DNA from: an uncultured Candidatus Saccharibacteria bacterium
Lineage (GTDB): Bacteria; Patescibacteriota; Minisyncoccia; JACPXH01
Reading direction: 5' to 3'
Length of the DNA: 64,000 nt
NCBI GenBank assembly: GCA_964409225.1
Contig: CAYPCM010000002.1
Coordinates: 413 to 64,412 of the forward strand
Positions 41,851 through 64,000 of this stretch are shown one piece after another; position 1 is the stretch's first letter, and each line of letters starts with the position of its first letter. The position numbers and the translations under genes were made by a program. The notes under the pieces were generated by a model. That model was given only the letters and a program-made list of their open reading frames with translations. It was not told the origin of the DNA and did no database searches.

Positions 41851-41852
41851 AA

Positions 41853-43643: not shown

Positions 43644-43794
43644 GGTATTCTCCTTCTTGTGTAAAGGTTCATTCCGCAATACGCGCAACTTAACTCTACA
43701 CCACAAAGTAGATCGTGTCAACTAAAAAGCGAAACCCGGTTGGCCGACCGGCCAACCGGGTTGTAGTACGAGAAAGAGCTCGGAAGGTACTGCG

Positions 43795-44865: not shown

Positions 44866-44948
44866 GTCGCACTCCTCTCTTGAGGGTTTTGTGCCCTCGG
44901 TTGGAGTGTTCGGGAGATTGCGGCGAATGCCGCAATCTCCCGAACTGG

Positions 44949-46145: not shown

Positions 46146-46147
46146 TC

Positions 46148-47032: not shown

Positions 47033-47051
47033 CCTTCCTCCCTGCGAGATG

Positions 47052-48611
47052 TCAATACACCTCGCTCACCAAGGAAATCTCCACTCGCCGCAACCGGAAT
47101 TCGTGGGCGCCGTCCGACTCATTGGGTAGTCGTGGGAGCGGCTCCTTCGATCCAATGCCGACCGCGCGCACGCGGTTTGCATCAATGGAGTAGGTTACTC
47201 CAAAGTACCGCGCCACGCTTTCTGCACGCTCTTGGGAGAGTTGCAGATTGGCTTCGGGATCCCCGCTCAAGGCCGTGTGGCCCCTCACGAGGACCCGGAA
47301 ATTCGGATAATGCTTGAGTTTCTCGACCACGCGGTCGAGCTCCTCTTTCCCATCGATCTGCAGATCGGCGGTGCCACTTCGGAAGGTGATGGGTTCAATC
47401 TTGAGCGAACCCACCACCCTGAGCGCCTTCCAGCCAGCTTCATCGAGCTGCGGGAACGCAGCGCTCAAAGAATCGGCGTTCTTCGGCTGGTTTGCGCCAG
47501 CCACGGTAAAGCCAACCGGCCCCTTGGCATACAGCTCTTCGAGGAACCGCCCCCAGACAATCCGGCTGGGATCGCCGTCGGGCAGGGGATTCTTCGTGAA
47601 GTCTCCAACCCTCCGATTCGTCAAAATCGAAACGGTCGAGTCGATCGTCTCCACGAGTCCACGGCTAATCGAACCGATGCCAAACCACTGCTCGCAGTTG
47701 TCGCTGAATGTGGCCCAGGCGACACCCTTGAGCATGGTACGTACCGCTTCACCCGAAAGCCGCGTGGCGGCCATCACTTCCTTCTCAAGTCGCTCGGGAT
47801 TATCCCGGTAGACCTTGAGGGTTCGGAAGTATGCCTGCAGCACGGTCTTGACCGTTCCCACGTTCGCCGCCGCGTACTCGCGGTTCACCAGCAGGATATC
47901 GACAATGAACTGACGGGTGCTCTCGGTGCCGAGGATCTTGACGATCCCCTTATTCGCGAGTGCCCGCGAAACATCGGGTTCCCACAGAACCGCGACGTCC
48001 GCTTGCCGGCCGACGAGCTTCTCGAGCGCCTTGGACGAGCCGTCGGTTTCAATCCGGAGCGGTCCTTTCTGCGGAAGCAACTCTGGCACATCGAAGTGAT
48101 CCACCATCCCTTTAAGAAGGTGGTGGCTCGGCGAGTCGGGCGTGAATGCGACGCGCAATCCCGTCCGCCCTTTGAGAGAATTAATGTTGGTCGCCACGCT
48201 CTCTTGCGCAAGGATGGCGTCTCCGCCTTTCGATTCGTCAATGACCGCAACGATCACAGCCGGAAATCCAACCTTCGCGGCGTTGAGGATATACGAATCC
48301 ACGGTTGCAACCGCGAAGTTGAACTCACGCGCCTTGAGCCCAGCCATGCGTTTCGCGTACGCGGCGCTGTCGTCGAGACACGAAAACAGGTACCCCTCTG
48401 CGAGCATCCGATTTTTCATCTCGGAGCTGCACAAAGGGAAATACCCGATCCAGTTGTCCATAGCGATCGTGATCTTACCCTTGGTTGCGGCAGAATCGCT
48501 TGTCTTGCGCTGCCGCCAATCCTGGATGAACGGGCTCGCAAGCCGATAACCGGCCATGAGACCCGCTCCAAGGATCACCAGCACTCCCACCGTAACCAGC
48601 TTCCTAGACAT
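47052..48611 (-). CDS. periplasmic substrate-binding-like domain fused to C-terminal OmpA/MotB peptidoglycan-binding domain
   Basis: N-terminal TM/signal, NMT1-like SBP region, C-terminal OmpA motif RVLVRGHTALSGDPEANLQLSQERAESVARYF...NRRVEI; start at ATG 48611 with AAGGAGGAGGG SD. Confidence 0.7.
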   Translation of the reverse strand: MSRKLVTVGVLVILGAGLMAGYRLASPFIQDWRQRKTSDSAATKGKITIAMDNWIGYFPLCSSEMKNRMLAEGYLFSCLDDSAAYAKRMAGLKAREFNFAVATVDSYILNAAKVGFPAVIVAVIDESKGGDAILAQESVATNINSLKGRTGLRVAFTPDSPSHHLLKGMVDHFDVPELLPQKGPLRIETDGSSKALEKLVGRQADVAVLWEPDVSRALANKGIVKILGTESTRQFIVDILLVNREYAAANVGTVKTVLQAYFRTLKVYRDNPERLEKEVMAATRLSGEAVRTMLKGVAWATFSDNCEQWFGIGSISRGLVETIDSTVSILTNRRVGDFTKNPLPDGDPSRIVWGRFLEELYAKGPVGFTVAGANQPKNADSLSAAFPQLDEAGWKALRVVGSLKIEPITFRSGTADLQIDGKEELDRVVEKLKHYPNFRVLVRGHTALSGDPEANLQLSQERAESVARYFGVTYSIDANRVRAVGIGSKEPLPRLPNESDGAHEFRLRRVEISLVSEVY

Positions 48612-48660
48612 GTGTCCCTCCTCCTTCTTACGCGGCTTCTGCCGCAACGGGGTTGACTTT

Positions 48661-48679
48661 ACTGGTAATGATTACCAGT
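48661..48679. promoter_or_regulatory. 19-bp palindrome ACTGGTAATGATTACCAGT (putative operator) overlapping predicted -10 of the 47052..48611 gene
   Basis: read directly; TTTACA-N17-TGGTAAT on minus strand. Confidence 0.4.
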
Positions 48680-48832
48680 GTTGACTGTTCATATTGTAAA
48701 GGGACCCAACCGAAAAAAGTATTGCATTATGTTTTCTGTTTGTCAAGACACACTATGCTCGGACATTATGCGTGAAAAGCGAACAGGGAGCCCCGTGTGG
48801 GACTCCCTGTGTGGCATACGGAAAGAGCGAAA

Positions 48833-49615
48833 CTACTTCCGAAACTCGGCTACATCGAAGGTCGGCGCCTCGGCGAGCACTTCCTGAAAGCCTCGGCGAA
48901 GCGACGGGAGGTCTCGTGCCTCGACGTAGACGGTGAGTCCGGGACGGTTCAACGAATGCTTCTCGCCGATGCAAAACCCAAGGGTTTTCACTCCGACCGA
49001 CGAGAAACTTGTAATGTGCTCGACGATCCCGCCCGGATCTTGACCGGCATTCGCTTCGCCGTCGGTGACGACGACGAGCGTATATAGGCCGTAGCCGAGC
49101 TGACGATGGGCTTGGGCCATAAGCTGACGGTAGCCGCGCGTGACTGCATCGTGCAGCGGCGTCCCATTGCCGGTGCGGATCTTCTGAATGGTGCTCACGA
49201 CCCGGGTTTTGTGTGCGGCCCCAAAGCCGAGTGGGACCCGCTCGGAGACTCCGCTGCCGTCGAAGACGAGGAGCCCGATGTTGTCATCGTCCCGCAGCGC
49301 CCCCACGAACTCGACGGTTGCGGTCTTCGCCACACTAATCTTATTGCCACTACCTCCGCAGGCTCGTTCGTCCATACTTGAGGAGGCATCAAGCACGACA
49401 TAGTAGTTGCGGGCAAGGATGTTGTCGGCGAGCTGGATACTCTCTTGCCCCTGCTTCTCTCCCGATTCAATCGGCGGCCAGCTCATGCGGTGCGCGAGCT
49501 GGACGGGAGATCCCCCCGACGCCTGCGACACAGGCGGTTGCGGCATCGGCTCTTCTGAGCACCCATTGAGCGAGAGCGCCGCGAGCACGAGGACTGCCCA
49601 AAAGCTGGTCTGCAT
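48833..49615 (-). CDS. von Willebrand factor type A domain lipoprotein
   Basis: lipobox LSLNGC, MIDAS-like DASSSM...GNGTPL...TDGE; GAGGAGGG SD. Confidence 0.75.
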   Translation of the reverse strand: MQTSFWAVLVLAALSLNGCSEEPMPQPPVSQASGGSPVQLAHRMSWPPIESGEKQGQESIQLADNILARNYYVVLDASSSMDERACGGSGNKISVAKTATVEFVGALRDDDNIGLLVFDGSGVSERVPLGFGAAHKTRVVSTIQKIRTGNGTPLHDAVTRGYRQLMAQAHRQLGYGLYTLVVVTDGEANAGQDPGGIVEHITSFSSVGVKTLGFCIGEKHSLNRPGLTVYVEARDLPSLRRGFQEVLAEAPTFDVAEFRK

Positions 49616-49626
49616 GGCGCCCTCCT

Positions 49627-51363
49627 CTACTTGCTGACCGGGGCGAAAACCGCTGCCTCGGCCTCCACCCGGATAATCCGGAATTCGACGCGCATATTCG
49701 CACGCCATTCCTGCTCGGTTCTCGGAGCGCAAGGGTCCGCGCCACAGAGACCATTCTTCGGCCGCATGACGCCGTGGCCGATAACGGTAAACTGATTGGC
49801 ATCGATCGAGATGCCACGCCCCTTCGCGTAGCTGATCAAGCTCTGCCGCACGCCGTTCGCCCTCGTGTAGGAGAGGTTCTTCGCGGCTTGCGCGACCTCG
49901 GTGAGCTCGCGCTCGGTGGCTTGCTTTGACTTTCGCTGCAGATAGTTGAGAGGGTCCGCGTGTCCCTCGACGGTGATGACGGCGCCGCCGTACGTCGAGG
50001 CAAGTTCCGCGACTCGCTTGAAGGCCTCGGCGTACTGCTCAACGGGGAACGTGTTCTGGTTCGGCTGGAAGTAAACCTCGAAGGAGGGAAAGAGCTCACC
50101 CTCCGCGAGCGTCCCCTGCTTCTGCCTTGTGTCGACGACCTTCGCGACCTCCTTGGGGTCAAACCGCGGGACCTCAACGCCCGTGGTGTCGGCGAGGCCG
50201 GCGGCGAGTTGCTTGTAATCGAGCTGTGCGGCCTGAATCGGGACCTTCTTGGTAATGAGGCCCATGGTGATGAACGCCGACTGCACTTCGCCGATGACTC
50301 GCTGGAGGTTCCGCGGGTTCGTCGAACTCGTGAAGAAGGCGACGTTGCCGCGGTACCCGACAAGATCAGCGTCGGCATACATCCCTTCGGCCTCGGCAAT
50401 TTCCGGCTTGTCGAGGAGAATCATGGCACCGGCAGTCATAAACGTCTTGTAGGCCGCGGCTTGCCTTGCCTTCTCGGCGATAAGGTTTCGCGCGCCTTCG
50501 TGGGCGAGCATGAGGCCGTGCACGAACTTCTCGATTTCGCCCCGGTTCGCCTCGTAGAAGTCGCGACGGACCGCGTAGACATCGGCGATGATGTGATCCG
50601 CGCTCTTGGTACTGAGCAGGATCTTCGCCCCCTTCACCGATCTCTCACCGCCGGAACCAACTGTCCCTTGGGAGGTGAGTTCCATAGCGTCCGGACTGAT
50701 CACGGCCGCGGCCCGCACAGTGGGATCCTTACGGAGAGCTGTTCCCGGATCCTGGTCTGACTTGGTGAGGTCTCTCGTCCACTTGACGGTAACATCCTTT
50801 GGCGAGAGGCCAGCATCGGCCAGCACCTTAAAGAGGAACTCGACCTGCGGCGCGTAGGCCTGAACCGCGATGATCTTCCCCTTCAGATCCTTCGAGGTCT
50901 TGATATCATCTTTGACGACGATGACATCTCCCCCGCGGGACCAGCTTCGCTGCTCGATAATGACGAGCTCGGTCCGCGGATCGCGCGCCGCGATCTCCGC
51001 CGCCATCGCGATCTGACCTACTGTCCCGCGGAGGAACGGCGTATCGCCGGCGAGGTACATACGAAGTTGCTTCGTGAAGTCGTCCTCCCGGAAGAGCACG
51101 AGGCTGAGGCCTTCCCGGTCGAAGATGCTCCCCTTGGCTGTGGTCTTGCTGTTGCCGTTCGCGTAGATCGCCTCGAGGTCCGCTCCCCAGGTAATGACTC
51201 CGACTTTCCTTGGTCCCGGCTTCACGGTGCCGACGACCGGCGGAGGACTCATCTGAATGAGCGGCGGCGCCTGGACGAACGGTACGGGCTGCGCATAGGA
51301 CGGCTGCGCCGCGGCAACCGACGCCACGCACAGAGCCACGACTACTCCGAGCACTCGCTTCAT
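49627..51363 (-). CDS. secreted substrate-binding-like domain fused to C-terminal OmpA-like domain (paralogue of 47052..48611)
   Basis: signal peptide, NMT1-like region, OmpA motif ITVEGHADPLNYLQRKSKQATERELTEVAQAAKNL...NMRVEFRI. Confidence 0.7.
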   Translation of the reverse strand: MKRVLGVVVALCVASVAAAQPSYAQPVPFVQAPPLIQMSPPPVVGTVKPGPRKVGVITWGADLEAIYANGNSKTTAKGSIFDREGLSLVLFREDDFTKQLRMYLAGDTPFLRGTVGQIAMAAEIAARDPRTELVIIEQRSWSRGGDVIVVKDDIKTSKDLKGKIIAVQAYAPQVEFLFKVLADAGLSPKDVTVKWTRDLTKSDQDPGTALRKDPTVRAAAVISPDAMELTSQGTVGSGGERSVKGAKILLSTKSADHIIADVYAVRRDFYEANRGEIEKFVHGLMLAHEGARNLIAEKARQAAAYKTFMTAGAMILLDKPEIAEAEGMYADADLVGYRGNVAFFTSSTNPRNLQRVIGEVQSAFITMGLITKKVPIQAAQLDYKQLAAGLADTTGVEVPRFDPKEVAKVVDTRQKQGTLAEGELFPSFEVYFQPNQNTFPVEQYAEAFKRVAELASTYGGAVITVEGHADPLNYLQRKSKQATERELTEVAQAAKNLSYTRANGVRQSLISYAKGRGISIDANQFTVIGHGVMRPKNGLCGADPCAPRTEQEWRANMRVEFRIIRVEAEAAVFAPVSK

Positions 51364-51488
51364 CGTCGTTCTCCCTTCTCCCTAGTAGGTTTACGGCTTT
51401 CCGGCACACGTCCAAGAACGAGCGTTGACTCCACCACCTCCTCTCGACTGTCTTATTTGCATTTACGGAATAGAAATGTGAACGAACA

Positions 51489-51521
51489 ACACGAAAAATA
51501 TAGTATAGAAACCACCTATAG
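51489..51521 (-). promoter_or_regulatory. sigma-70-like promoter TTGACA-N16-TATACT on minus strand, ~115 nt upstream of 49627..51363
   Basis: reverse complement reads TTGACAacctataggtggtttcTATACT. Confidence 0.45.
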
Positions 51522-51783
51522 GTTGTCAAGTCTGTTTGCTTTTCACCCGACAACGAATTCACCCGAATCACAATATTGAAAGCCCCGACGCGTGAGAGCG
51601 CCGGAGCTTGTTTGCGGCCATACTTACGGGCTGGCGCGCATGCCCGGCGGGACGCCTCTCTGCTGCAAGGCGCTTCACTTTGGGGACCCGCTCCCCGGCG
51701 CTACGGATTACCCATGCGCTCAGAGCCTGGCGAGGGCTCGTGTTCCGCGTGGATTTCCGCTTTCACGCGCGCTGCGCGGGCCG

Positions 51784-53298: not shown

Positions 53299-53791
53299 CG
53301 TTTCCTCCTTGGCACCGCGCGCCTCTGAAGACCGACTGAAAAGAACCCGAGCGAACCTCTGCCTGTGCCGCCGCTCCGGCGGCAGGCATTTCGCTCTTCT
53401 AAACGTTCACCCACTACAATGTAATGATACATTGTAGTGGAACCAGCGCTCGGAAGAACGGGCGAGGCCAGGAGACCTCGCCGAATTATTGAAGAGGGTT
53501 TGAGCGGTCGTCCGCATTTGTTTCGCCCCATGGGGGAGCCCCGAACGGGGATGCGGACCAATGCACGCTCTGACATTGTACCCTCGGACAACGCCGCCGG
53601 TTGGCAGCCGACGGTGGGATTTGGCCTCTGCCGCGGAGCCGTTGTAGTACGCGCGCCCAAAACTCGCGAGCGCGCCGGCTCTCCCCGCATACGTTTTGCA
53701 TCTCCGAGGTGCCAACTCTCGGATGCAACCCGCATTGCGGGGTGGCAGTGCCTGACGAGGAACCCATCAGACCCCGGAAAAAGAACAGAAA

Positions 53792-54013
53792 CTAGTCGTA
53801 AGGGGAAGGAGGGCCGCCGCAGCCGTGATCGCACCGCGCTCCGAGCGCCTTGCCTTGGCGCCGGAGCAGCCGCTTGATGCGCATCACGTCGCGGCGGGTG
53901 AGGCGAAGCGGCTTGCCCTGCGTGACCGAGGACGACATGTAGGAATCATACCGGAACATGACTTCAACCACGCGGCCGCGGTAGCGAACAGACTCTGCGC
54001 AATACCAAGCCAT
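53792..54013 (-). CDS. small hypothetical protein (73 aa)
   Basis: strong SD GGAGAGGAGGTGAGG before ATG. Confidence 0.4.
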   Translation of the reverse strand: MAWYCAESVRYRGRVVEVMFRYDSYMSSSVTQGKPLRLTRRDVMRIKRLLRRQGKALGARCDHGCGGPPSPYD

Positions 54014-54017
54014 CGCC

Positions 54018-54227
54018 TCACCTCCTCTCCGTGTTAAGTGAAAGGAGCGTTATCTCCATCACAATCTGCAAATGGATTGCAAACTCTGATCGATAGGCGA
54101 AGGGTTGAACTTCGCCTTGGCAGTCGCCCCGGCGGTCGCGCTCCTCGAGCCGCTCGATCAGCTCTTGGAGTTTCGCCACCACCGCCGACGGCAACCGCAT
54201 ATACAAAGGAACGTACCACACCGTCAT
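54018..54227 (-). CDS. small hypothetical protein (~70 aa; MTVWYVPLYMRLPSAVVAKLQELIERLEER...)
   Basis: AAGGGAGGG SD before internal Met of track ORF 54018..54374. Confidence 0.4.
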   Translation of the reverse strand: MTVWYVPLYMRLPSAVVAKLQELIERLEERDRRGDCQGEVQPFAYRSEFAIHLQIVMEITLLSLNTERR

Positions 54228-54462
54228 CCCTCCCTTCGCGCCTGCCGCTCCACGCGGTGGCTTTCGGAACGGTTGTGCAAAGGAACTCCCGCAGCGGTGC
54301 GCTCGGCCTCGCGTCCCTCTCCGCTGGCTGGCGGATCGAGACAAGCTCGGCCGGCACCGCTGGTTCAGCGCCAAGCAGTTGGCGCCTCACCCTTTCTTCG
54401 ACGTGTGCGCCTTGCCGGGCGGCGCCGTCGGAACCCGGAAAGGGATGCGGAACTTCTTGCCA

Positions 54463-54618
54463 TCATTCATAAGCATCCTCCTCGTCGTCATCCACCCCAT
54501 CCAAATAATCTGAGGAGTAGCCACACTCGCAGACCCACACCACCCCGTTCTTGTACGGAAAACCCATGATCCCGATCGAGCCACACACCGGGCAGGACTC
54601 GACGCGCTCCTCGTACAT
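54463..54618 (-). CDS. small zinc-ribbon protein (CPVCG...CECG)
   Basis: two CxxC pairs; AAGGAGGG SD before MYEERVESCPVCGS. Confidence 0.5.
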   Translation of the reverse strand: MYEERVESCPVCGSIGIMGFPYKNGVVWVCECGYSSDYLDGVDDDEEDAYE

Positions 54619-54689
54619 TTGACCCTCCTTATTTTTAGCTTGTCCGTTTTCGGACAAACAAAAAGGGCATACAACGCCCCTCCTCTACC

Positions 54690-54760
54690 TCCTGCCAAAA
54701 GATTCAAGAATGTCTTAAAACCTTTGGTAGAGCGTCGAGCTCGCGCTCAACGCGAAAGGA
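54690..54760. repeat. structured repeat family copy h (ccaaaa..tcaagaatgtctt..cctttggtagagcgtcgagc..cgctcaacgc)
   Basis: shares ends with copies at 57880 and inner hairpin with copy at 58330. Confidence 0.45.
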
Positions 54761-54995
54761 CAAATGGTAGGAGAGCTTGCCCCTTAGTTGGCGGAGGGCA
54801 GACGAACTGCCCACGGAATTTTCACTATGCGGGTGTCACACCCACCGCGCATAGAACCGCGTGCGATTCCGCGCATTCAGAGTTTCTAGCCGGCCTTTTG
54901 GCGGCCCTCACCGGCGGGGCTCTCCTCCCCGGATGGATCGACCACGTCAATCCCTCTGGGGGAGAGTCGAGCGTGCGACTCGACTCAAAACTCCT

Positions 54996-55352
54996 TTAGC
55001 TTGCCGGCCGCACGTCCGGGTCGCGGCCTTGATCCAAGCTCTGACGCAACGCAAAGTGCTTGCGCTCGCACTCGTCACACCAGAGCAAGTGGATACGCAA
55101 CGCCTCGAACTGCTGCGGGCCGAATGCCTCGCGGCACGCCAGTGCCCGAATTTCGTCCTCCGTCGGGCACGACCCGGCCAGCACCCGCCGCCGCTCCGGC
55201 GTCAGGGTCGCGCCGAACTCGCGCAACCCGTCAATCACCTCCCACTCCGCGGCGCACTCCTCGCACGCGAGAAGGTGCGCCTTGAAATCGGCCGCCTGAA
55301 CCTCCTCTGCCGCCCCGCGCTCCATCGCAGCGCGGGCCTGAACGCAATCCAT
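54996..55352 (-). CDS. putative zinc-finger (zf-HC2, anti-sigma-factor-like) protein
   Basis: two H-x3-C-x2-C motifs (HLLACEECAAEW, HLLWCDECERKH); start at MDCVQ with GGAGGAGGTGAGG SD that is part of repeat copy a. Confidence 0.55.
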   Translation of the reverse strand: MDCVQARAAMERGAAEEVQAADFKAHLLACEECAAEWEVIDGLREFGATLTPERRRVLAGSCPTEDEIRALACREAFGPQQFEALRIHLLWCDECERKHFALRQSLDQGRDPDVRPAS

Positions 55353-55376
55353 CCGCCTCACCTCCTTCCTCCACCA

Positions 55377-55450
55377 AAACCTCTCCATTTTACCTCGAGC
55401 GAAATCGGGGGGCTTTGGTGGAGGGGCGACGATGGTGGTCGCCCATTCCA
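55377..55450. repeat. structured repeat family copy a (cctccaccaaaacc...ctttggtggaggggcgacgatggtggtcgccc)
   Basis: read directly; forms 5' UTR of zf-HC2 gene on minus strand with anti-SD/SD pairing. Confidence 0.5.
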
Positions 55451-55501
55451 CTTTCACAGATACTTGCTCGACTGCATACATTTACGTATGATGAATCCAG
55501 T

Positions 55502-55666
55502 ATGGCAAACGGAACTAACACGAAACTGAAATCCAGAATCTACCCGCTGTTGCGTACGCGAGAGCGCAAACTTGTGTGGGAAAAAGCGCGAGGGATGTGG
55601 CGACGGAAGAAACCCGAACCGATTCGCGAACTTGAGAAGATGCGCCGCGAGTGGGAACGTAATTAG
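55502..55666 (+). CDS. hypothetical small protein upstream of PIN gene (possible antitoxin)
   Basis: position; MANGTNTKLKSRIYPLLRTRERKLVWEKARGMWRRKKPEPIRELEKMRREWERN. Confidence 0.3.
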   Translation: MANGTNTKLKSRIYPLLRTRERKLVWEKARGMWRRKKPEPIRELEKMRREWERN

Positions 55667-55687
55667 GTTTGCCGCATCTCGCAACAC

Positions 55688-56057
55688 CGTGTACACGCTC
55701 GACACGAACGCCATCATCTATTACCTGAAAGATGACTCGTCGGCGGTAGCGACACTGCGCGAAATATTCGCCGAGCCCATCACGCTTTACGTCTCTGCCA
55801 TCACGGAGGTTGAACTGTTCGGCTTTCCGAACCTCACCACTTCAGAAGCCACGCGCATTGAGGAGATACTGCAGACGGTATCAGTGATAGCGCTCGACTC
55901 CCACGTGGCGCGTATTGCCGGCTCGCTCCGCCGCCTCTACGTCTAAAGATTGCCGACGGTGTCGTTGCGGCAACGGCGCTCTTTACCGGCACAACGATAC
56001 TCACGCGCAACGTGAATGACTTCAAGCGAGTACCGGACCTCTCCATACGGCGAATTT
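55688..56057 (+). pseudogene. PIN-domain (VapC-like) toxin gene with frameshift near 55940
   Basis: GTG start, YTLDTNAIIYYL (PIN Asp motif) ... LRRLYV* then +2 frame continues LKIADGVVAATALFTGTTILTRNVNDFKRV (PIN C-terminus). Confidence 0.6.
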
Positions 56058-56084
56058 GATACGCTGACAAGAACCCCCAACACT

Positions 56085-56180
56085 TCTCCTCTACCAAAAC
56101 CTATCCTCAATCGCAGAGGTCCTTCGCGGAGTTTACCCTCGAGCGAAACGAGGGGCTCAGGATAAACTTTGGTGGAGAGG
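56085..56180. repeat. structured repeat family copy b (ctaccaaaacctatcctcaa...ctcgagcgaaacgagggg...ctcaggataaactttggtggagagg)
   Basis: read directly. Confidence 0.5.
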
Positions 56181-56309
56181 TGGGTGCAGGATGTGCACGT
56201 TCCTGCTTTCGGAGCCGAGGGCCCCACCAGAGACCTCGCCCGGGCTGATTACCGGGACCGCGGCGTTATAGGGGGACCGAGGCCCCGCCCGCTGACTCCC
56301 GCATTTCCT

Positions 56310-56375
56310 CCACCGCAACCATCGAAACTCCTCGATGATTCTGGTGGAGGGGCGACGATAATCTGTCGCCCCGAA
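56310..56375. repeat. structured repeat family copy c (cctccaccgcaacc...ttctggtggaggggcgacgataatctgtcgcccc)
   Basis: read directly. Confidence 0.45.
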
Positions 56376-56526
56376 AGAACAATGCGGTCTCGCCCCGACT
56401 TATAGGTCTTGGCGCAACTTCGTGGCGCGCCTTCGACCACTTCGCCAGGATCCCCGCTCACGACGCCTTGGGACTTTAACCCGCAACGCCGGACTCCGAA
56501 GCCGACAGCCGGAAGACGCCTACTTT

Positions 56527-57456
56527 TTACAGCGCCTCCCCGACGACCTCGACAACCTGCTCCAGGGTCAACTCCGAACTTTTTCCTGGAGGGCTGCCGC
56601 CGATCGTGCCGGTCGCCGCACCGCCCCAGCCGGGCTCGATGACGCTGAGTCGCTCGAGCGCGGGAGTGACCACGACGCCGTCTCCGGCGACCGTGAACTT
56701 CCGCACCGGCGGGTTGCCAAAGGCCCGGTTGAACAGCACCACGACCTTGGCCCCGCGCCCGTACAGGGCGCCTGACGCGCCGAAGAACTTGCTCTCCAGC
56801 CACGCCAGCCGCAGGCCCGACTTGGTCTCGCCCCACGAGGCCTGCTCGAGGGTCTCGGCCAAGAGCCGCTTGTTCTCGGCCTTGGCCTCGGCCCACCGAG
56901 CCCACTCGCCCGTGAGTTCCCCCACGAGGAGAAGCCCCTCGGGATCGGCCGGCCCCTGCACGAGCCAATCGCGCAGGAGCACCACGCCCTTACGAACCTG
57001 CTCGGCCTGGTCACGCTCGGTGAGAAGCATGCCAGAGAACAGATCCGAAAGAGACGCCGTTCCCTTCGGCTTGGGCCCGAGGGCCTTTAGCCCCTCCGTG
57101 TCCAGATGGTTGATATACTTCACCAGCTGGCTGAGGGCCCCGCCCTCGAACATCACGTCCCCCGCAAAGTACGCCTGGGACGTGGCCGAGTTGGCCGGCC
57201 CTCCGGCCTCGTGGTGGTCGAAGCACTCCGCGACGACCCGACCCGACCCGCCGCACTCAACGCAGAGCACGTTCGGATCTGCCAGATCAACCTCGGAAGC
57301 CCGACCAGACCGGGCGATCTCGACTGGCGGGATCATCTCCCGCAGCGCTTGCGCACTTGGGAGCTTCCCGCCGGTGAGCCGGAAAAATACCGTCCCGCAA
57401 GTGTCGAGGTCAACCTTGGGGCCGACCACGACCTTGCGGAACTTTCCTATGGCCAT
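56527..57456 (-). CDS. hypothetical protein (possible DHH-like phosphoesterase motifs DLDT / CFDHHE; weak)
   Basis: ATG with AAAGGAGGTG SD (track start 57462 is TTG two codons upstream). Confidence 0.55.
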   Translation of the reverse strand: MAIGKFRKVVVGPKVDLDTCGTVFFRLTGGKLPSAQALREMIPPVEIARSGRASEVDLADPNVLCVECGGSGRVVAECFDHHEAGGPANSATSQAYFAGDVMFEGGALSQLVKYINHLDTEGLKALGPKPKGTASLSDLFSGMLLTERDQAEQVRKGVVLLRDWLVQGPADPEGLLLVGELTGEWARWAEAKAENKRLLAETLEQASWGETKSGLRLAWLESKFFGASGALYGRGAKVVVLFNRAFGNPPVRKFTVAGDGVVVTPALERLSVIEPGWGGAATGTIGGSPPGKSSELTLEQVVEVVGEAL

Positions 57457-57529
57457 ATCCAATCACCTCCTTTCCTATCACCTTACCGGCCACTCGGTAA
57501 AGCGAGGTATTTGGTAAAAGAACTCCCCC

Positions 57530-57595
57530 GCCAAAATCCTGAATTTTGATCAGGGCTTTGGTGGGAGGACGACTTCAGGGTCGTCCCACTGGGTG
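57530..57595. repeat. structured repeat family copy d (cccgccaaaatcc...ggctttggtgggaggacgacttcagggtcgtccc)
   Basis: read directly. Confidence 0.45.
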
Positions 57596-57879
57596 AGGTG
57601 CGCGCTCTTGCGGCTGGGCCGATTGGCAGACCGTCCGCTTATTGCCCGGGCCATGAGCTTGGCCCGCGTGGTCCAAACGGGTACTACCAATACCCTCCCA
57701 CTCCCGGAGACGAACTACTTCTTCGTCTTCTTGTCGGCCTCGGAGGATTTCGCCTCCTGCGCCGCCGGGCGGGTGGCATACACCACCCCCGCTACCACGT
57801 AGTAGCGGACTACCATGCGCCTCACCCCCTTTCACCTAAATTTTAAGTTACGGAAACTTGGACGGACCATCCGCCCACC

Positions 57880-57965
57880 AAAACCTATCCTTGAGATCCT
57901 TCGCTGCGCTCAGGACAAGCTTTGGTAGGGCGTCGAGCGAGTGCGTCCGTCGCTCAACGCACGAT
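57880..57965. repeat. structured repeat family copy e, inverted orientation (cccaccaaaacctatccttgag...ctcaggacaagctttggtagggcgtcgagc...cgctcaacgc)
   Basis: read directly. Confidence 0.5.
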
Positions 57966-58301
57966 GAGCCGCATCGCCTCCTTCCCGTAGATCGCGCCGA
58001 TGCCAGGCGCGACCACGACGACCGCGATCCCGATCGCGGTCTGCCAAGGCCAGCGGGCCCAGCAAAACCGCACCAGCGCCGCGACGCCCCGGCCGATCTG
58101 ACGCGCGACGTACCAGACCGCGCGCCAGAACCAGCGCCACAGCCACGCGACCGCGGCCCGGATGCGCCGGCCGAACCACCGCCGCACGCGCCGCACACCG
58201 CGGTTCGTCCGCCTCGGGTGGAACAACATCAACCCGAAGGCGTAGAGCATGACCGCGAGGCCGGCGAACGCCGCGAACAAGTCGAACATGGCTAACCTCA
58301 T
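57954..58301 (-). CDS. hypothetical membrane protein (Trp/Arg-rich, 2 TM)
   Basis: ORF; no SD; GC-rich region so could be spurious. Confidence 0.3.
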   Translation of the reverse strand: MRLAMFDLFAAFAGLAVMLYAFGLMLFHPRRTNRGVRRVRRWFGRRIRAAVAWLWRWFWRAVWYVARQIGRGVAALVRFCWARWPWQTAIGIAVVVVAPGIGAIYGKEAMRLIVR

Positions 58302-58329
58302 GCCGCGCGGTCGCGGCGAAATTGGTTAA

Positions 58330-58395
58330 GGAACTTACCCACCAAAACCTTCAAACTGTCTTGAAGATTTTGGTGGGAGGACGACGATGGTACTT
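58330..58395. repeat. structured repeat family copy f (cccaccaaaacc-ttcaaactgtcttgaag-attttggtgggaggacgacgATGgtacttgtcgccc)
   Basis: read directly; cleanest copy. Confidence 0.55.
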
Positions 58396-58415
58396 GTCGC
58401 CCTCGAGAAGGAACG

Positions 58416-58784
58416 TTAGAACGAACAGGGGATGATCGGCGTCGGGAGCACGCTTTCGATCCCGGCGTACTGACTCCCCGTCGCCCAACTGAGCACGACT
58501 CGCTGGTAGGCCGTCACGGCACGGTTGTGCCGGGCGACCCAATATCGGTGGTCAAGTTCGCTGGGGATTTGATACTCCCCCCGAACGTTGAATCCACAGA
58601 GATGGCGCGTGGCCTCCGCATACGAGCGGAGATTACTCACCGCCGACCGTTGCACCTCTACGTCGCGCACCAACGCGACGATGGGGGCAGGCCGCGGCCG
58701 ATGTATCATATCGAGCAGCGTCGCGCCCACCATCATCCCCACCGTCGCCACAACCGTTATAAACCCCGCCAGCAGCATTCCCAT
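58416..58784 (-). CDS. hypothetical membrane protein (122 aa)
   Basis: N-terminal TM helix; AAGGAGG SD. Confidence 0.5.
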   Translation of the reverse strand: MGMLLAGFITVVATVGMMVGATLLDMIHRPRPAPIVALVRDVEVQRSAVSNLRSYAEATRHLCGFNVRGEYQIPSELDHRYWVARHNRAVTAYQRVVLSWATGSQYAGIESVLPTPIIPCSF

Positions 58785-59725
58785 TACATCCTCCTTGCGC
58801 CTTGCGCAAAAGGGTTGGGGTCAAAGAGCCATCCCGCCAGATCGAACCTCTCGTGAGATTCCCTCTGGCAGGACCCCGAGTTTGAGTATGATTATGTATG
58901 AGTGCAACTCGGGGCTGACTTACTTTTGGAAGGATCCAACCTTCGTGCCTTATATCGGGCTTGGGCTTGATCGCGTACCGGCTGCGTGATTGCAGACCGG
59001 AGGACTTCTGTGCGATCAGGTCTTCCCTCCGAACTTCGGCACGGGCGCAGGCGCGCCGGATGCGGATGGCCGAGCCTACTGCCGAGATCGAACGACCTCG
59101 AGCACCCGCCCGTCTCGCAGCAGATAGTGGAGGATCAACTTCCCTCCCTCTACCAGCTGTCCGACAAAGCGGATCAGCCCGGCCTTCTCGAGAGCTTCGA
59201 GCAGTTCCTTCATCCTCTCTTAGTACCGAGGGGCACCAGGAGAGGACGAGGGACGCTCCGCGTTTTCGAGAACTTTCCAGACACCTTTCCAAAAATGTAG
59301 GGGCCTTATCCTTGACGCTTTTCAGCGCCGAGGATCCTCGGTGTGGTGCGGATCGTCGGATTACCGACTGCCGCACCCAAGGCCCTTACGTTTCTGTCAA
59401 CGTGCTATTTTATTCTTTCATTATATCACCAACACTTCTACTTGTCAATAGTTTCTGGCATTTGTAAACCGAAAAGGCTGTTTTTTGGCTTTCCAGCTTA
59501 ACTTTATGTATTGCTCAGAAACCCATTCGCATTCTGACACCATTCGCAAAGAGACCCAGACCCCTCTTTTCCTGGGCCTCTCCACGAAAGAGAGGCCTTT
59601 GGCTTTGCCGCTATCCTTCCGGCAAAACCCATTGTGTTTGGCTTTGCATTGAGGCCAATACCGATGGTGTTGAAAGCCTATGCCAAGCCATTTTCTGTCC
59701 CGAATCGCGCCGCTTTGGCACAGTA

Positions 59726-59762
59726 AAAGCGGCAGGCCCGTTCGGGCCTCCCGCTTTTCGGG
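59726..59762. terminator. bidirectional intrinsic terminator (aaaagcggcaggcccgttcgggcctcccgctttt) inside ~520-bp AT-rich island
   Basis: stem-loop flanked by A-tract upstream and T-tract downstream. Confidence 0.5.
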
Positions 59763-60099
59763 AGTCAACTAATGTTGACGTCGCTATTATACTCGCCGAA
59801 AATATTTTGTCAAGAGGTTATGACACTTACGCAGGCACCCCTATTAATTCTTGCTTTTATAGAGCCAAAAATATGGGCATCTCACTTTGCCGAATTCTTC
59901 TAACTATTCAATTCATTTCCAAATTGTCCAATACCATTGACAACTCGTCCACAGTATGATAACATTACAGCGTTAGTTCTTCCTGCTCCGGCACATCGGG
60001 CCACGGGCTGTTACGCCCAAACAGGCCGCCGGAGCGTGCAGCGGTAGTTCCTCGCCGCAGCCAGCCGCCAGCCGACTGGCTGCATGAAAGGAGGTGAAC

Positions 60100-60228
60100 A
60101 TGATGGCTGGAGTTTTTTCGACGGTGTCAACAAGCGGAACTGCCAACGGCATCGGGGCGGGCGTCGCCCCAACGATCCGTCGGCGGTTCACGGTCCCGAG
60201 AGTTGCTCACTGCGGCCTCGGGGCCTGA
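60100..60228 (+). CDS. small ORF (42 aa, MMAGVFSTVSTSGTANGIGAGVAPTIRRRFTVPRVAHCGLGA) with strong SD GAAAGGAGGTGAAC
   Basis: manual translation; below ORF-track threshold. Confidence 0.3.
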   Translation: MMAGVFSTVSTSGTANGIGAGVAPTIRRRFTVPRVAHCGLGA

Positions 60229-60465
60229 CGCGGCCCGGGCGCACGACGGCAGGATGATCGCGCACGGATGCGCGCCCGGGCAGCGGAAAATCGACGTCCT
60301 TCGTGTTTTGGCCCGCGACCTTTCGGTCGCGGGCCACTTCTATGGTGTATACAGCAGCGTTCTGGAGGGATTGCGCCTCGCCGGCCCTACCCGCCGTCTC
60401 TGCTATTACTATGTATCGATACACAGTAACGTGCGGGGACGAACGCGCCCCACACCACTCTTAAC

Positions 60466-61197
60466 TCATGATGATAATCGATCCCACAGCGCGTTGAATA
60501 CCTGCCGAAGGCTCGTCGCCAGATCAGCTGATTCAATAATGACGCCGCTGGGTTTTTCTCTGTATGAAATCATCGCAATTTTGTCGCCGTAAACGTTAAT
60601 CTCGCCGGAAAGCGCATACCGGTCAGCCGGCAGTTCACGGTACTCGCCGCCGAGAGGCTTATTGCCTTGCTTGGACGTGTAGAGTGTGCGCACTTTCACC
60701 TTCGCGATCAAGCGGTGGCGCTCGTCATTCGCGGCAGGCGGAAGAAGCGCAAATGCTTCATCCGGCGCGCCGAACGTAACAAGTTCATCGACGCGACTCT
60801 TCACGACATCTCGCCGGACTGCCTCAATACTCTCGCGCCCCTCAAAAAACCTTACCCTTGGTTTTACGCCCGCCCGATTGAAAATCGCCTGCAATTCCGG
60901 CAGCGCCGAGACAAACTCTTTCTCTTTCGCTTTAATCTCCTCTTCCTGTAGCCGGAATAATCGCAAGAGTGCTTCGGGATTTTCTGCCGCGTAGTGCGTC
61001 TTTTTGCCCTTCTCCACCGTGCTTACGATTCCCTGTTTCATAAGGGAGTCCAAAATCACGTAGGTCGTGGCGCGGTTCACGCCGGATTTTTGCGCGATCT
61101 CCTGCACCGGCCCTTCGCCGATTTCCAAAAGCGCCACATACACTTTCGCCTCTTTATCCGAGAGGCCTAATTTTTTGAGTTCGAGTTCAAGGGCCAT
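60466..61197 (-). CDS. TrmB-family transcriptional regulator
   Basis: N-terminal HTH LKKLGLSDKEAKVYVALLEIGEGPVQEIAQKSGVNRATTYVILDSLMKQGIV. Confidence 0.8.
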   Translation of the reverse strand: MALELELKKLGLSDKEAKVYVALLEIGEGPVQEIAQKSGVNRATTYVILDSLMKQGIVSTVEKGKKTHYAAENPEALLRLFRLQEEEIKAKEKEFVSALPELQAIFNRAGVKPRVRFFEGRESIEAVRRDVVKSRVDELVTFGAPDEAFALLPPAANDERHRLIAKVKVRTLYTSKQGNKPLGGEYRELPADRYALSGEINVYGDKIAMISYREKPSGVIIESADLATSLRQVFNALWDRLSS

Positions 61198-62131
61198 AGG
61201 GTTTGCTGCGCGCGTCAATTTCCGCCTGCATTTTCTCTTGCCACTTGTCAGGGGTGTGCACGACGCGCGTGGCGCCGATCGCCAAAAGTCCGCCCTTTGT
61301 GTTTACCCTCTCGGTGATCGGCTTCCAGTGCTGCGCGATGAGGCGTTCGCGCTCACCTACGGAAACGCGCTGGCTCGGCGGCAGTTTGAACACTTCGTCT
61401 GCCTGCTCCGGGGAAACTAACCAGTCGGGAAGATCAACGAAATAAGCGGCATTGCCAACCCGCGGATTCTCGAGCGCGATGCAACGCGGGAAAAAGGCGC
61501 CACGGTAGCCGGTGAAGCCGTCTTTTGAGTTCACAAACCCGAACAGCACCTGCGGCTGACGCTCAACGAACTCGAGCCGTGCCAAATCAACTCGCGGCTG
61601 CTCCGGCTCTGCAGATCGCTCACGCTGCTCTCTCGTTGAATCTTGTTCTTTTGGAGGAACGCCGACGTCCTGCTCTGGGATAATGCCCAAATCGGTCTTG
61701 TGCCAGAAATCGAGGTTGATGCGTTCGACCGTGCGGAGAATTTCTTTCGCAATGGCCTCGCGCGCTAAACCGAGCTCGCGCGGCACTTCTCCCGACATGC
61801 GGCCGTTCTCGCCAATGCTCCAAGTGGTGTGCCGCTCTTGACCCTTGTCGCCGCGGTAAAAGACGGTGGCGTAGAGCAGCTTCGGTTCGGGCTTGTGCTC
61901 ACCGTCCTTCTCTGGCGGCGCAGTAAAAGGAATGATCGATACTGATTCAGTTGGCGCGGCGGTGCCGGAAAAATTGCCGGCTGAAACCTGATCAAACTTG
62001 CCTTGTAGCACCGAATCAAACATGCCGCGCACTTCTTGACGCTTTTTCTCCTTTTGTTGCTCCGCGGCTTGAGCCTTCAGCACACGGCCCATATCCTGAA
62101 AGTTTTTAATCTTAGGTTTTTCGAAGTCCAT
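61187..62131 (-). CDS. hypothetical protein (314 aa), overlaps trmB-like start by 11 nt
   Basis: ORF, operon coupling. Confidence 0.6.
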   Translation of the reverse strand: MDFEKPKIKNFQDMGRVLKAQAAEQQKEKKRQEVRGMFDSVLQGKFDQVSAGNFSGTAAPTESVSIIPFTAPPEKDGEHKPEPKLLYATVFYRGDKGQERHTTWSIGENGRMSGEVPRELGLAREAIAKEILRTVERINLDFWHKTDLGIIPEQDVGVPPKEQDSTREQRERSAEPEQPRVDLARLEFVERQPQVLFGFVNSKDGFTGYRGAFFPRCIALENPRVGNAAYFVDLPDWLVSPEQADEVFKLPPSQRVSVGERERLIAQHWKPITERVNTKGGLLAIGATRVVHTPDKWQEKMQAEIDARSKPYGP

Positions 62132-62286
62132 AGAAAGTTTTCTGTTTACTCGTTTTTACTCCATGATACCCACATGATACCAGATTTTGTACACGCAACG
62201 GAAACATAACGACACAAACAGAGAAGCAGACCGTCCGAAAACGCAAAATTTAGTCTTCGAGCTTGTCGAGAAGCCTAAATTTTGGC

Positions 62287-62394
62287 TTACCTATATCGGT
62301 GCTTCTCGCCTCTGCTCGAACAATAACGAGTTTTCGAACAGCCTGGGCAAGCCCTACCGCTGAACACACCTAACCACACCAGCCCAGGATTCAC
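62287..62394 (-). CDS. possible small Cys-containing peptide (35 aa, GTG start, SD GGAGGGAGGGG supplied by repeat copy g)
   Basis: manual translation (M)NPGLVWLGVFSGRACPGCSKTRYCSSRGEKHRYR. Confidence 0.2.
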   Translation of the reverse strand: MNPGLVWLGVFSGRACPGCSKTRYCSSRGEKHRYR

Positions 62395-62480
62395 AAAGAA
62401 CCCCTCCCTCCGCCAGAATCTTTGATGACTGCAATTCCCGAAAACTCTGGTGGAGGGGCGAGGAGACCTCCGCGCTCCTC
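62395..62480. repeat. structured repeat family copy g (cctccgccagaatc...aaactctggtggaggggcgaggagacctccgcgctcctcgccc)
   Basis: read directly. Confidence 0.45.
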
Positions 62481-62489
62481 GCCCATGCT

Positions 62490-62972
62490 TTAGCCGCAGT
62501 TCGGCGTCCGCTCGTGCGGCGCCATTGCGTCCGGCGCGCCGCAGTTGCACGGACGCGCCTTACTCTCCTCGGGGACAGGCACAAAATACTCCTCCCGATG
62601 GAGAATAAAAGTAACAAGGCTGCGGGCGGCCCGTTCGGCGGCCGCGTAGAACTCGGCATGGGCGTTGTGCTCTCCATTTCGCCGCCCGTTGAAATAGCCT
62701 ATTGCGATGCCGCGCAGCACGGCCTCCGCAGCCAGCTCGGAACTGAAGAAGCACCGATAAGCTCCCTCGAATGGGGGCAGTTCATCGAGCCGATAGTTTT
62801 CGGTTTTGCCGTCAAACGGGGAGGCGATGGTTATCTCCCCGGAGGAAGAAAGAGTTGTGTATGGCCACCCTTTCTCCCTAAAAAGACCTTCTTCCACCGC
62901 AATGAGTTCGCGGGTCTCAACCCTATTGGAGGAACTAAATTCCGCCTCGTAGACAACCCTTTTTTCATTCAT
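62490..62972 (-). CDS. hypothetical protein with C-terminal Cys cluster (CNCG...PNCG)
   Basis: ORF. Confidence 0.55.
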   Translation of the reverse strand: MNEKRVVYEAEFSSSNRVETRELIAVEEGLFREKGWPYTTLSSSGEITIASPFDGKTENYRLDELPPFEGAYRCFFSSELAAEAVLRGIAIGYFNGRRNGEHNAHAEFYAAAERAARSLVTFILHREEYFVPVPEESKARPCNCGAPDAMAPHERTPNCG

Positions 62973-63215
62973 GGCTGGAGTCCTCCGTCCCGTGTCCCGA
63001 TGCTATCGGGACAAAACCGAATCTTCCTCCCGGCGGCGTATGCCTTCTCCTGACGCTCGTCAGGATACCGAGATGTATTTCGCCGCACGCGGCCTTCGCA
63101 ACGCGCCACCCGGCGCGCTTCTCGTTTCAAAGAACTTCCACCTGCACGACCCGCGCCTCCCTCGCGAGCCCTGTTGGTGGGCCGAGCGTGCGAGCTCGGC
63201 CGATCATCCTCCTTT

Positions 63216-63821
63216 TTAGTTTGCGCCCGGACCGGCGATGTCCGAGACGATCTCGACGGCCCGACGGATCTTCCCCTCGATGCCCTGCTGACATCCGAGG
63301 AAGTACCACCGCGGACGCGCCCGCCAGGCCTCCCGCAGCCCATATTCCCGATTCGCGGCCTCCTCGACGCTCTCGAACCGGATGTCGTTGCCAGCCTTGC
63401 CGTACAGCTCCGGCTGACCGGTCGCGAGCGATTCGAGGTGGATCACGGCCGCATACCGCTCGTACTCCGCGGCCGGATTCACGCCGTAGCGTCGGCTGAA
63501 CTCGGCGAGCCCGCCCGGGGTATACGCTGCGCCGTCGAGCACCCCGCGATCGCACAGAAGCAGCCAGGCGCCGTTCGCCAGCGCCGTGAGCTCCCAAGCG
63601 CGCTCAAGCGACCGCTGCAGTCCGACGAGCGCTGCCTGGAACGTCTCCTGCCATTCCGGCGACCAGGGCAAGTCGCAGCCCGGCACCGGAAACCCTCCGT
63701 TGAGGAGCATGGTCGCGCCCTCCGGAACCACGAGCGCCGCTCCTGCGAACTTCTCCTTGAGCACCGCGAGCACGGTGCTCTTGCCCCCGCAGGGGCCGCC
63801 GGTGATTACGATTTTTTTCAA
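63216..63821 (-). CDS. P-loop NTPase (AAA_28-like predicted ATPase/kinase)
   Basis: Walker A ITGGPCGGKST at N-terminus, Walker B-like LLLCDRG. Confidence 0.75.
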   Translation of the reverse strand: MKKIVITGGPCGGKSTVLAVLKEKFAGAALVVPEGATMLLNGGFPVPGCDLPWSPEWQETFQAALVGLQRSLERAWELTALANGAWLLLCDRGVLDGAAYTPGGLAEFSRRYGVNPAAEYERYAAVIHLESLATGQPELYGKAGNDIRFESVEEAANREYGLREAWRARPRWYFLGCQQGIEGKIRRAVEIVSDIAGPGAN

Positions 63822-64000
63822 GGCCGCTCCCTCCTTGCGCTCACGGCTTTGCGCCGGGCGCGTTTGGGTTACTTGGCCGCGTTGGGGTTTCCCCCGTTTG
63901 TCGAAGAACTTTCAGAACCATTCGCAAGGCTTGCGACGATCTCGTCGTCACAACTCTTGCGATTGCTTCACGCTCTTTTATGGAATGCTCTCGACTCGGC

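Follow-up and report, generated by a model that had tools for sequence, protein, structure and literature searches.

Here, we describe a family of structured repeats in a 64,000-nucleotide stretch of contig CAYPCM010000002.1 (GCA_964409225.1, positions 413 to 64,412), hereafter called the window, in which a covariance model finds twelve copies between positions 54040 and 63205, all on the minus strand and in a single orientation. The copies are part of an array of small genes in Parcubacteria, within the candidate phyla radiation (CPR), and the array adjoins a gene for a TrmB-like regulator. We propose, with a probability of roughly 0.4, that these elements are the cassette-boundary joints of an integron-like platform without an integrase, analogous to the attC and attI sites of integrons but not members of either. 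The hairpins of the element, together with a short box, would form a joint at which cassettes are excised, inserted or swapped, and this joint would act as a sense-strand hairpin that either is recognized by a recombinase or, once DNA has been taken up, serves as a short homology anchor. Contig JACPLK010000018.1 (GCA_016186535.1) matches the window at 99.8% identity, and the related loci with which we compared it are labeled L048, L050, L068, L195, L196, L198–L204 and L210.

On the coding strand, which is the minus strand for the genes of the array region, each unit consists of a Shine-Dalgarno sequence with a small open reading frame (ORF), a short hairpin (hp1), a long hairpin (hp2) and often a GTTCYTY box. 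The small ORFs have good Shine-Dalgarno sequences and mostly belong to no known family: searches of the array proteins against Pfam, NCBIfam and PHROGs returned only TrmB, PIN and AAA_28 matches as well as weak Lar-like zinc ribbon and weak anti-sigma matches. The G+C-rich hp1 (GGCGA..TCGCC or GTCGA..TCGAC) usually starts 0–13 nt past the stop codon, and its 3' strand has the nearly invariant end TCG(C/A)C, with a second base pair that covaries between the two forms. hp2 stands flush with hp1, with no spacer, and spans 45–146 nt. Its base and arms are conserved (CCTCCACCARAG / YTTYTGGYGGRGG; C(C/T)YCCACCARAG ... YTTYTGGYGGRG) and its interior is variable: at its simplest it is a 4-nt loop, at its most elaborate a composite of hairpins nested in one another. 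A GTTC box follows at most 15 nt (mostly 1–5 nt) past the stem in 13 of 37 copies, compared with approximately 10% at random positions. Relatives also have a second arm type, CGCTCTTC ... GAAGAGCG, whose hp1 is unchanged and whose box is CGCTCG..GTTCTTTCACTT. The last 5–6 nt of the hp2 3' arm of this type (GAGCG) can also pair with the CGCTC that precedes the GTTCTTT box, an alternative helix reminiscent of an attenuator (L202 7925–9650; L199 11700–12140; L198 5486–5560; L195 12029–12160).

The covariance model (R1) was built from the long hairpins of ten copies, and a structure-aware script search was also run. Ten strong copies score 39–56 bits. These are the eight that had been listed in the original prediction, a reading of the letters made without database searches, which were all present at the places it gave, as well as two further ones at 54917–54971 and 58826–58880. 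Two weaker copies of the same architecture lie at 54048–54101 (21.1 bits) and 63133–63186 (19.1 bits), and the model also finds more copies in the relatives. On window positions 1–53000 it returned nothing convincing, and the element is missing from approximately 30 other intergenic regions of the window. Allowing for one mismatch, we counted the motif CCNCCAAAACC 18 times, compared with 5.5 expected occurrences; none of 100 shuffles reached this count.

The structure of these repeats is well supported. Across ten copies of the 18-pair stem, 85% of the cells are paired compared with 71% in shuffles, pairing falls to 52–62% when the partner is slid by one column, and 12 of the 18 pairs carry compensatory changes. 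For ten copies of the element, the predicted structure is a pair of abutting hairpins, with z-scores between -2.7 and -7.9 and stem stabilities of -32 to -50 kcal/mol. Because of this covariation, the sliding control and the fold z-scores, the similarity between the repeats is due neither to low complexity nor to chance, and it does not dissolve into the GC-rich low-complexity resemblance that the original prediction had considered as an alternative outcome. The structured family that it had recognized is thus confirmed, as are the inner modules shared between copies. The second GC hairpin is likewise present, even though it had been described as following the long hairpin; on the minus gene strand it precedes it, right after the upstream stop codon.

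The elements belong to a recurrent genomic platform. The trmB-like gene (60466..61197, minus strand; Pfam TrmB match, 5.5e-17) has 739 homologues, and the named ones among the best 120 of these 739 all come from CPR/Patescibacteria; the TrmB-like protein of the window itself is recorded under a Candidatus Parcubacteria bacterium. We compared the trmB contexts of L195, L196, L198, L199–201, L202–204, L048 and L210, whose TrmB-like proteins range from 87% to 37% identity. In every context, an A+T-rich stretch comes after trmB and contains promoters of the sigma-70 consensus, TTGACA-16/17-TATAAT, in perfect or near-perfect form; next come an ORF-less, G+C-rich leader of 150–530 nt and a same-strand series of small ORFs with no Pfam matches. 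In the window, promoter P2 (59420..59448, minus strand) is a TTGACA-17-TATAAT sequence with 12 of 12 matches and an extended -10 TG, which feeds the downstream part of the array. The same type of arrangement is found in L195, L196, L198 and L210; L199, L202 and L048 have one consensus promoter each, ahead of the array. The conserved leader (59270..59419, minus strand) ends in GGAAAGTTC, past which the sequence differs among genomes: indeed, the leaders of four genomes align as far as AGTTC and then diverge at once. Using the covariance model, we counted at least 13 element copies in L195, 4–6 in L196, at least 8 in L198, 2–3 in L048 and one each in L050 and L202, always on the gene strand, downstream of ORFs and in the array orientation. 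The G+C content of the arrays is approximately 55% even in hosts of 35–45% G+C.

Three further features of the trmB neighborhood were observed. Behind a perfect TTGACA-16-TATAAT promoter (59786–59813) lies an ORF-less RNA of approximately 330 nt (59455–59785, minus strand) with conserved counterparts in L195, L196, L210 and L198. In the RNAalifold prediction it forms 89 pairs, of which 13 show compensatory changes; among these is a 5' hairpin that reads GTCAAC/GTTGAC in the window and GCCAAC/GTTGGC in L196. Rfam contains nothing that matches this transcript, which could be a new non-coding RNA of the CPR. A further promoter, the third, has the sequence TTGACA-17-TAACAT and faces the 3' end of trmB (59937–60460, plus strand). 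Its transcript contains GAAAGGAGG..ATG..TTCGACGG, which is conserved in L202 with no conservation of the ORF (44 codons compared with 4 in L202) and suggests an RNA-level element or a leader peptide. Lastly, the trmB-like gene of L196 (3282–4040) is itself a mosaic relative to window 60466–61218, as its 5' 445 nt are approximately 92% identical and its 3' half has no DNA similarity, with 73–76% identity between the two proteins overall.

Which strand carries the functional fold can be read from the mispairs. Across 37 sense-strand copies we counted 86 G.U pairs and 32 A.C mismatches, while the G excess of the sense strand (skew of approximately 0.1) would predict a ratio of just about 1.2, and a single G.U pair is conserved in 28 of the 37 copies. 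It is therefore the coding strand that forms the functional fold, with a bias that RNA and single-stranded DNA would both produce. In addition, a CCACC arm stands opposite a GGCGG arm in 11 of the 37 copies; these are possible chimeric hairpins, with the pattern expected from exchange between arm types inside the hairpin.

The same numbers are compatible with a function purely at the level of RNA, the main rival reading, which we regard as rather unlikely on its own and in which the element punctuates a long, strongly transcribed operon. hp2 would then be a processing or pause site (cut by an enzyme of the RNase III or RNase Y type, or acting as a weak terminator at GUUCUUU), hp1 would stay behind as the protective 3' end of the upstream cistron, and recombination would be a by-product of the repeats. 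Phage T7 offers a precedent, as processing at the RNase III sites between the cistrons of its early mRNAs gives the upstream message a 3'-terminal hairpin; in both cases structured elements separate the cistrons of a strongly transcribed polycistronic RNA, even though the T7 sites are not associated with cassette turnover and cleavage of the elements described here is putative. Such a role would fit very stable, flush hairpins that always lie on the sense strand, usually 0–13 nt past stop codons, and that in most cases have the next Shine-Dalgarno sequence and start codon within 17–70 nt. It would also fit the G.U bias, the heavy transcription implied by the consensus promoters and the conserved structured leader, and the presence of RNase Y and RNase J genes in related CPR contigs. 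However, a G.T bias is equally expected of a hairpin formed by single-stranded sense-strand DNA, and a general device for end protection or termination would be expected elsewhere too and not at one locus. Termination in particular fits poorly: a terminator scan found none at the elements, the GUUCUUU-like box, unlike the tract of an intrinsic terminator, is present in 13 of 37 copies and 1–5 nt off the stem, the last array element of L048 is followed by a separate canonical terminator, and nearby CPR genes use ordinary hairpin-plus-U-tract terminators. RNA punctuation alone would also leave unexplained why the stem base is conserved across unrelated cassettes and distant genomes, why there is a conserved junction box, why the leader ends in AGTTC and why G+C-rich cassettes are shared horizontally. 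The two readings are not mutually exclusive. Given that the array is transcribed, the hairpins must also punctuate a polycistronic mRNA, and this may be a second function of the joints.

A reading of the elements as joints draws on the turnover of the genes between them, as the content of the array is a horizontally exchanged mosaic. One 935-bp segment of the window (59270 to 58335) comprises two cassettes, namely a 45-aa ORF with element i and a 122-aa ORF with element g, and has AAGTTC at both borders. Element i (58822..58915, minus strand; 44.2 bits), which had not been listed in the original prediction, has the divergent arms CCTGCCAGAG / ATCTGGCGGG and the box GGCTCTTT. Element g (58331..58405, minus strand; 56.1 bits, z-score -7.9) lies 3' of the 122-aa ORF. 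Its long stem is a perfect 17-bp helix, and its box AAGTTCCTT is the right-hand end of the segment. L195 and L196 lack the segment and are both joined at the identical position; L210 holds at least the 45-aa ORF up to the start of element i, where its contig stops, and L199 has a homologue of this first ORF. In the flanks of the segment, the window and L196 are nearest neighbors, with 90–95% identity compared with 72–80% for L195, and the pattern therefore needs either two deletions with the same ends or one precise insertion. An insertion into the window was our first interpretation, which was weakened by the occurrence of the first ORF in L210 and L199.

A toxin–antitoxin module has also changed its place. 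In the window, vapB and a frameshifted vapC (55502..56058, plus strand; Pfam PIN, 3.7e-09) run opposite to the array genes and stand between elements c and b, while a 73%-identical module of L195 lies elsewhere, between two copies of element z, with both of its junctions immediately after GTTC. The vapC gene of the window (55680–56058, plus strand) is frameshifted near 55946, and its C-terminal third continues in another frame. Element c (56064..56215, minus strand; 43.0 bits) has a composite long-hairpin interior with modules in common with elements f and b, and a GTTCTTG box 13 nt past the stem. Element z (54040..54122, minus strand; 21.1 bits, z-score -5.5) is a weak copy with the divergent arms ATCGATCAGAG / ATTGTGATGGAG, followed by GCTCCTTTCACTT.

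Other homology breaks fall at or inside the elements as well. A mini-ORF of 26–36 codons (..RYYVV.GVVY..; window 57715–57825, minus strand; L048 3714–3794; L195 6654–6755; L196 5737–5838) shares approximately 97% identity with L195 together with its 3' region, compared with approximately 79% in the flanks. The homology of this cassette ends inside hp2 of element e (57517..57593, minus strand; 53.3 bits, z-score -3.4, box AGTTCTTT), just past the 5' arm CCACCAAAG, and unrelated interiors follow. Beyond element e the two genomes carry different genes, of 311 aa in the window and 324 aa in L195. The mini-ORF is conserved across genomes whose TrmB-like proteins are only approximately 40% identical and is missed by most gene callers. 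The 324-aa gene that occupies the slot of the 311-aa gene (L195 7000–8100; 31% identical over 187 aa) has a G+C content of 71–75%, far over that of the rest of the array. An AAA_28 gene of the window is replaced by unrelated genes of 108 aa in L195 and 99 aa in L196; homology halts at AAGTTCTT and restarts at the next hp1. The element 3' of the AAA_28 gene (63125..63205, minus strand; 19.1 bits, z-score -2.8), with the short hairpin GGCCGAGC..GCTCGGCC, the long hairpin CCACCAACAGG..GCAGGTGG and the box AAGTTCTTT, is kept in L195 and L196, and its short hairpin covaries in L196. Cassettes are also shared over larger distances: a 105-aa cassette of L199 and L048 has 80.6% nucleotide identity, even though the TrmB proteins of these loci are 37% identical and show no DNA similarity, and its homology stops exactly at the start of hp1 in L048.

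A number of observations weigh against a joint of this kind. We found no recombinase of any known kind in the window or in any compared locus, and the only constant protein of the loci is the TrmB-like regulator. The breakpoints occur at several positions, namely after GTTC, before hp1 and inside hp2. Given this scatter, homologous or microhomology-mediated exchange fits at least as well as a site-specific reaction, and breakpoints spread over the element are also what one expects of repeats of any function, including RNA punctuation. A 75-nt indel with a flanking 8-nt direct repeat indicates that microhomology events occur in these arrays. The ends of long homology blocks fall inside elements only modestly above chance (p = 0.04–0.2 per comparison), the box is not universal (13 of 37 copies compared with approximately 10% at random positions), and since several of the 37 copies are orthologues, counts over them overstate the number of independent events. 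Parts of the array also look vertically inherited: behind the leader, the arrays of the window, L210 and L199 all open with the 45-aa ORF, and a zinc-ribbon ORF and a 108-aa ORF keep their order in L198 and L199. Finally, the RYYVV cassette is followed by different 3' elements in L048 and the window.

The missing enzyme was looked for in several ways. Approximately 50 ORFs of the window, whose contig ends approximately 800 nt beyond it, and the gene tables of 10 related loci contained no Phage_integrase match, so that an integrase gene could still lie further upstream. The TrmB-like protein looks like a regulator, judging by its sequence; as an enzyme candidate it was rejected, since it matches the winged-helix part of TrmB/TrmBL2 alone and no HxK motif is visible by eye. 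We also considered the 314-aa neighbor of trmB as a recombinase and set this candidate aside as uninformative. It has no match to any PDB sequence and belongs to a narrow orphan family, with five homologues only and one of these in an unrelated gene context. Its AlphaFold model has a mean predicted local distance difference test score of 53 and gave no fold match passing E = 0.1, and the protein is missing from the L198, L199, L202 and L048 arrays. At 5245–6972 (minus strand), 48 kb from the array, the window carries a gene for a TrwB/VirD4-type coupling protein, beside which lie ORFs of 427 and 410 aa that belong to no family and among which a relaxase (an HUH enzyme) could be found. The rest of the window is ordinary chromosome, with secA, secDF, murB/C, efp and relA. 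A stretch of approximately 10 kb between the end of the array and an RNaseH_like gene (41700–51600), which carries OmpA-like, VWA, TelA and ABC transporter genes, is missing from L195 at the corresponding place (L195 12700–13250).

The original prediction had raised the possibility of a mobile element akin to a miniature inverted-repeat transposable element (MITE). Its core survives insofar as the elements are tied to moving DNA and cassette content differs among relatives, but a classical MITE is a weak fit, and we consider it improbable that the hp2 arms are the terminal inverted repeats of a selfish element mobilized by a transposase in trans with a preference for GTTCYTT targets. Its attraction is that the arms are indeed inverted repeats of 11–14 nt and that GTTCYTT stands at both sides of copy g. 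In copy d (56302..56381, minus strand; 55.5 bits, z-score -5.4) the box, GTTCTTT, is found only upstream, 5' of the short hairpin. The last element after the 105-aa cassette, present in L048 and not in L199, where homology ends exactly at the hp1 start, would be consistent with an insertion of the element. MITE copies, however, share their interior, and here the interiors range from 10 to approximately 110 nt and differ in both length and sequence. Moreover, the elements keep to a single orientation and a single locus, orthologous copies are stable among the window, L195 and L196, and no locus compared contains a transposase. The proposed search for target-site duplications likewise gave no presence or absence of an element alone with a duplication among the compared relatives. 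Element d is duplicated in L195, with one copy at each side of a 243-aa gene, and at the position of element f L195 has another element plus the 3' end of the gene. Element f itself (57867..57962, minus strand; z-score -5.1), the short hairpin of which overlaps the stop codon of a 115-aa ORF, had been taken for an inverted copy at 57880; at 47.4 bits on the minus strand it has the same orientation as all others.

The second idea put forward from the letters, a cis-regulatory switch or RNA thermometer in which a portable ribosome-binding site (GGTGGAGG) is hidden by an anti-Shine-Dalgarno arm (CCTCCACC) and controls small ORFs, is largely refuted, and we regard it as very improbable. The 3' arm does resemble a Shine-Dalgarno sequence in many copies, and in two places a start site is near. 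Element b (55363..55447, minus strand; 47.9 bits, z-score -4.9) lies in front of the zf-HC2-like gene (54996–55352, minus strand), whose true Shine-Dalgarno sequence AAGGAGGTGA begins immediately after the stem; there is thus a copy ahead of this gene as predicted, but it is this one and not the copy at 54690. In element h (62395..62486, minus strand; 51.8 bits, z-score -2.7), GGAGGGAGGGG precedes a GTG-initiated ORF of 35 codons, which is not conserved in L196 or L195, where this element is succeeded by another cassette. In element h the short hairpin begins 6 nt past the stop codon of a 160-aa ORF, the box GGTTCTTT follows the long hairpin, and similarity between the window and L196 is lost immediately 3' of GTTC. 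The stems do not include the Shine-Dalgarno sequences of the downstream genes, and the next start codon is 35–270 nt past the stem in most copies, element b being an exception. Many copies lack GGAGG, namely g, f and i, those of L048 and L050 and all those of the second arm type. At -32 to -50 kcal/mol, the stems are far too stable to melt in the physiological range, and there is no Rfam match. The embedded ATGGT start on the plus strand, preceded by GGTGGAGGGG, proved to be the antisense of the hp1 loop motif ACCATC: this sequence is antisense to the genes and spans the hp2/hp1 junction, and the ORFs starting there have 10–18 codons and are not conserved. The two remaining elements of this part of the array are element a2 (54917..54988, minus strand; 39.5 bits, z-score -3.2), absent from the earlier list, which begins 9 nt past the zf-HC2-like stop codon, has compensatory arm changes (CTCCCCCAGAGG / CCGGGGAGGAG) and an orthologue in L195, and element a (54684..54760, minus strand; 44.6 bits, z-score -4.3), upstream of a small zinc-ribbon ORF (54463–54620).

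An exact-pattern scan of 185,579 species genomes gave 28 single matches in unrelated taxa, which is the chance level, and none in CPR. A scan of viral contigs gave at least 120 matches, approximately the chance number, none with a second copy or a high model score, and the element is therefore not a phage element. Among 43 matches in metagenome contigs, the only true relatives were L048 and L050/L068. No Rfam family matched the whole window at the gathering score, and at E-value thresholds the region 53500–64000 gave only a chance miRNA match (E = 0.33). A search for tRNA and tmRNA genes gave no match either. A tRNA-like or CCA-tail reading of 'CCACCA', and of a T-loop in hp1 of element z, failed across copies, and pairs of DNA uptake sequences were rejected because there are no copies outside the array. 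Full-text literature searches on integrons, cassettes or repeats in CPR/Patescibacteria found no relevant description.

In its organization, the closest known system is the integron, including sedentary chromosomal integrons and clusters of attC sites lacking integron-integrases (CALINs). Both are one-locus, one-orientation arrays in which most ORFs have no promoter of their own and belong to no known family. Behind each ORF stands an imperfect inverted repeat of 50–150 nt with conserved ends and a variable centre; the span of hp2, 45–146 nt, compares with approximately 57–141 nt for the repeat of attC. Both systems have a strong promoter and a conserved junction site upstream (Pc and attI in integrons). 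They also share a toxin–antitoxin module that is reversed inside the array, a content that varies among close relatives, a cassette composition unlike that of the host and a short GTT-containing junction box, which is GTTCYTY here and GTTRRRY in integrons. At the level of sequence, the likeness to attC fails for core sites, bulged bases, folded strand and IntI. There is no IntI or other tyrosine recombinase nearby, and the RYYYAAC / GTTRRRY pair of core sites occurs in none of the 12 elements; element z has the RYYYAAC-like heptamer GTTCAAC with no GTTRRRY, and no complementary core-site pair 55–145 nt apart exists on either strand of the array. The box lies outside the stem here, whereas that of attC forms the stem base. 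No conserved bulged bases or unpaired central spacer are evident, as illustrated by the perfect 17-bp helix of element g, and the better-folding strand is the coding (top) strand here and the bottom strand in attC. The flush short hairpin is an extra part, and breakpoints do not fall at one position.

Two other systems resemble parts of the picture. Repetitive extragenic palindromes (REPs), the mosaic elements built from them (BIMEs) and REPINs with their RAYT transposases are, like our elements, transcribed extragenic palindromes with a conserved stem sequence at gene 3' ends or between cistrons, and REPs can both protect upstream mRNA and seed rearrangements. REPs are nevertheless found genome-wide, in both orientations and with a GTAG head, whereas the two-hairpin elements described here, with their very variable interiors, are confined to one array and one strand in the 64 kb of genome examined. 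IS91, a rolling-circle element with an HUH transposase, has GTTC/CTTG tetranucleotides beside hairpin-bearing ends and acts on one strand. By analogy, the fact that several junctions in our arrays lie directly after GTTC, 1–5 nt 3' of a sense-strand hairpin, could hint at chemistry of the IS91/ISCR type, and we take this as a lead only; no HUH protein was found in any of the compared loci, and the units are single small genes and not insertion sequences.

Little is known about how CPR bacteria, with their tiny genomes and their dependence on hosts, gain and exchange genes. It is conceivable, though doubtful, that Parcubacteria carry a previously unrecognized platform for gene capture, equivalent to an integron in function but built from other components. 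Such a platform would consist of a consensus promoter, a conserved leader RNA or site ending in AGTTC in the role of attI, and cassettes whose ends each carry a sense-strand double hairpin and a GTTC box in the role of attC. Its catalyst would be a recombinase other than IntI; candidates are a single-strand nuclease of the HUH type or an enzyme whose gene lies elsewhere in the genome. Should the element instead act only as RNA, it would offer an unusually clear example of operon punctuation by elements of conserved sequence. The element, the leader and the adjacent 330-nt RNA are not in Rfam, and the covariance model can now be used for searches. If the platform is real, episymbiotic CPR bacteria would draw on it for a common pool of small genes, and a locus that collects, expresses and swaps small genes would be a concrete, testable route for gene exchange in the CPR and a second, independent solution to the problem solved by integrons.

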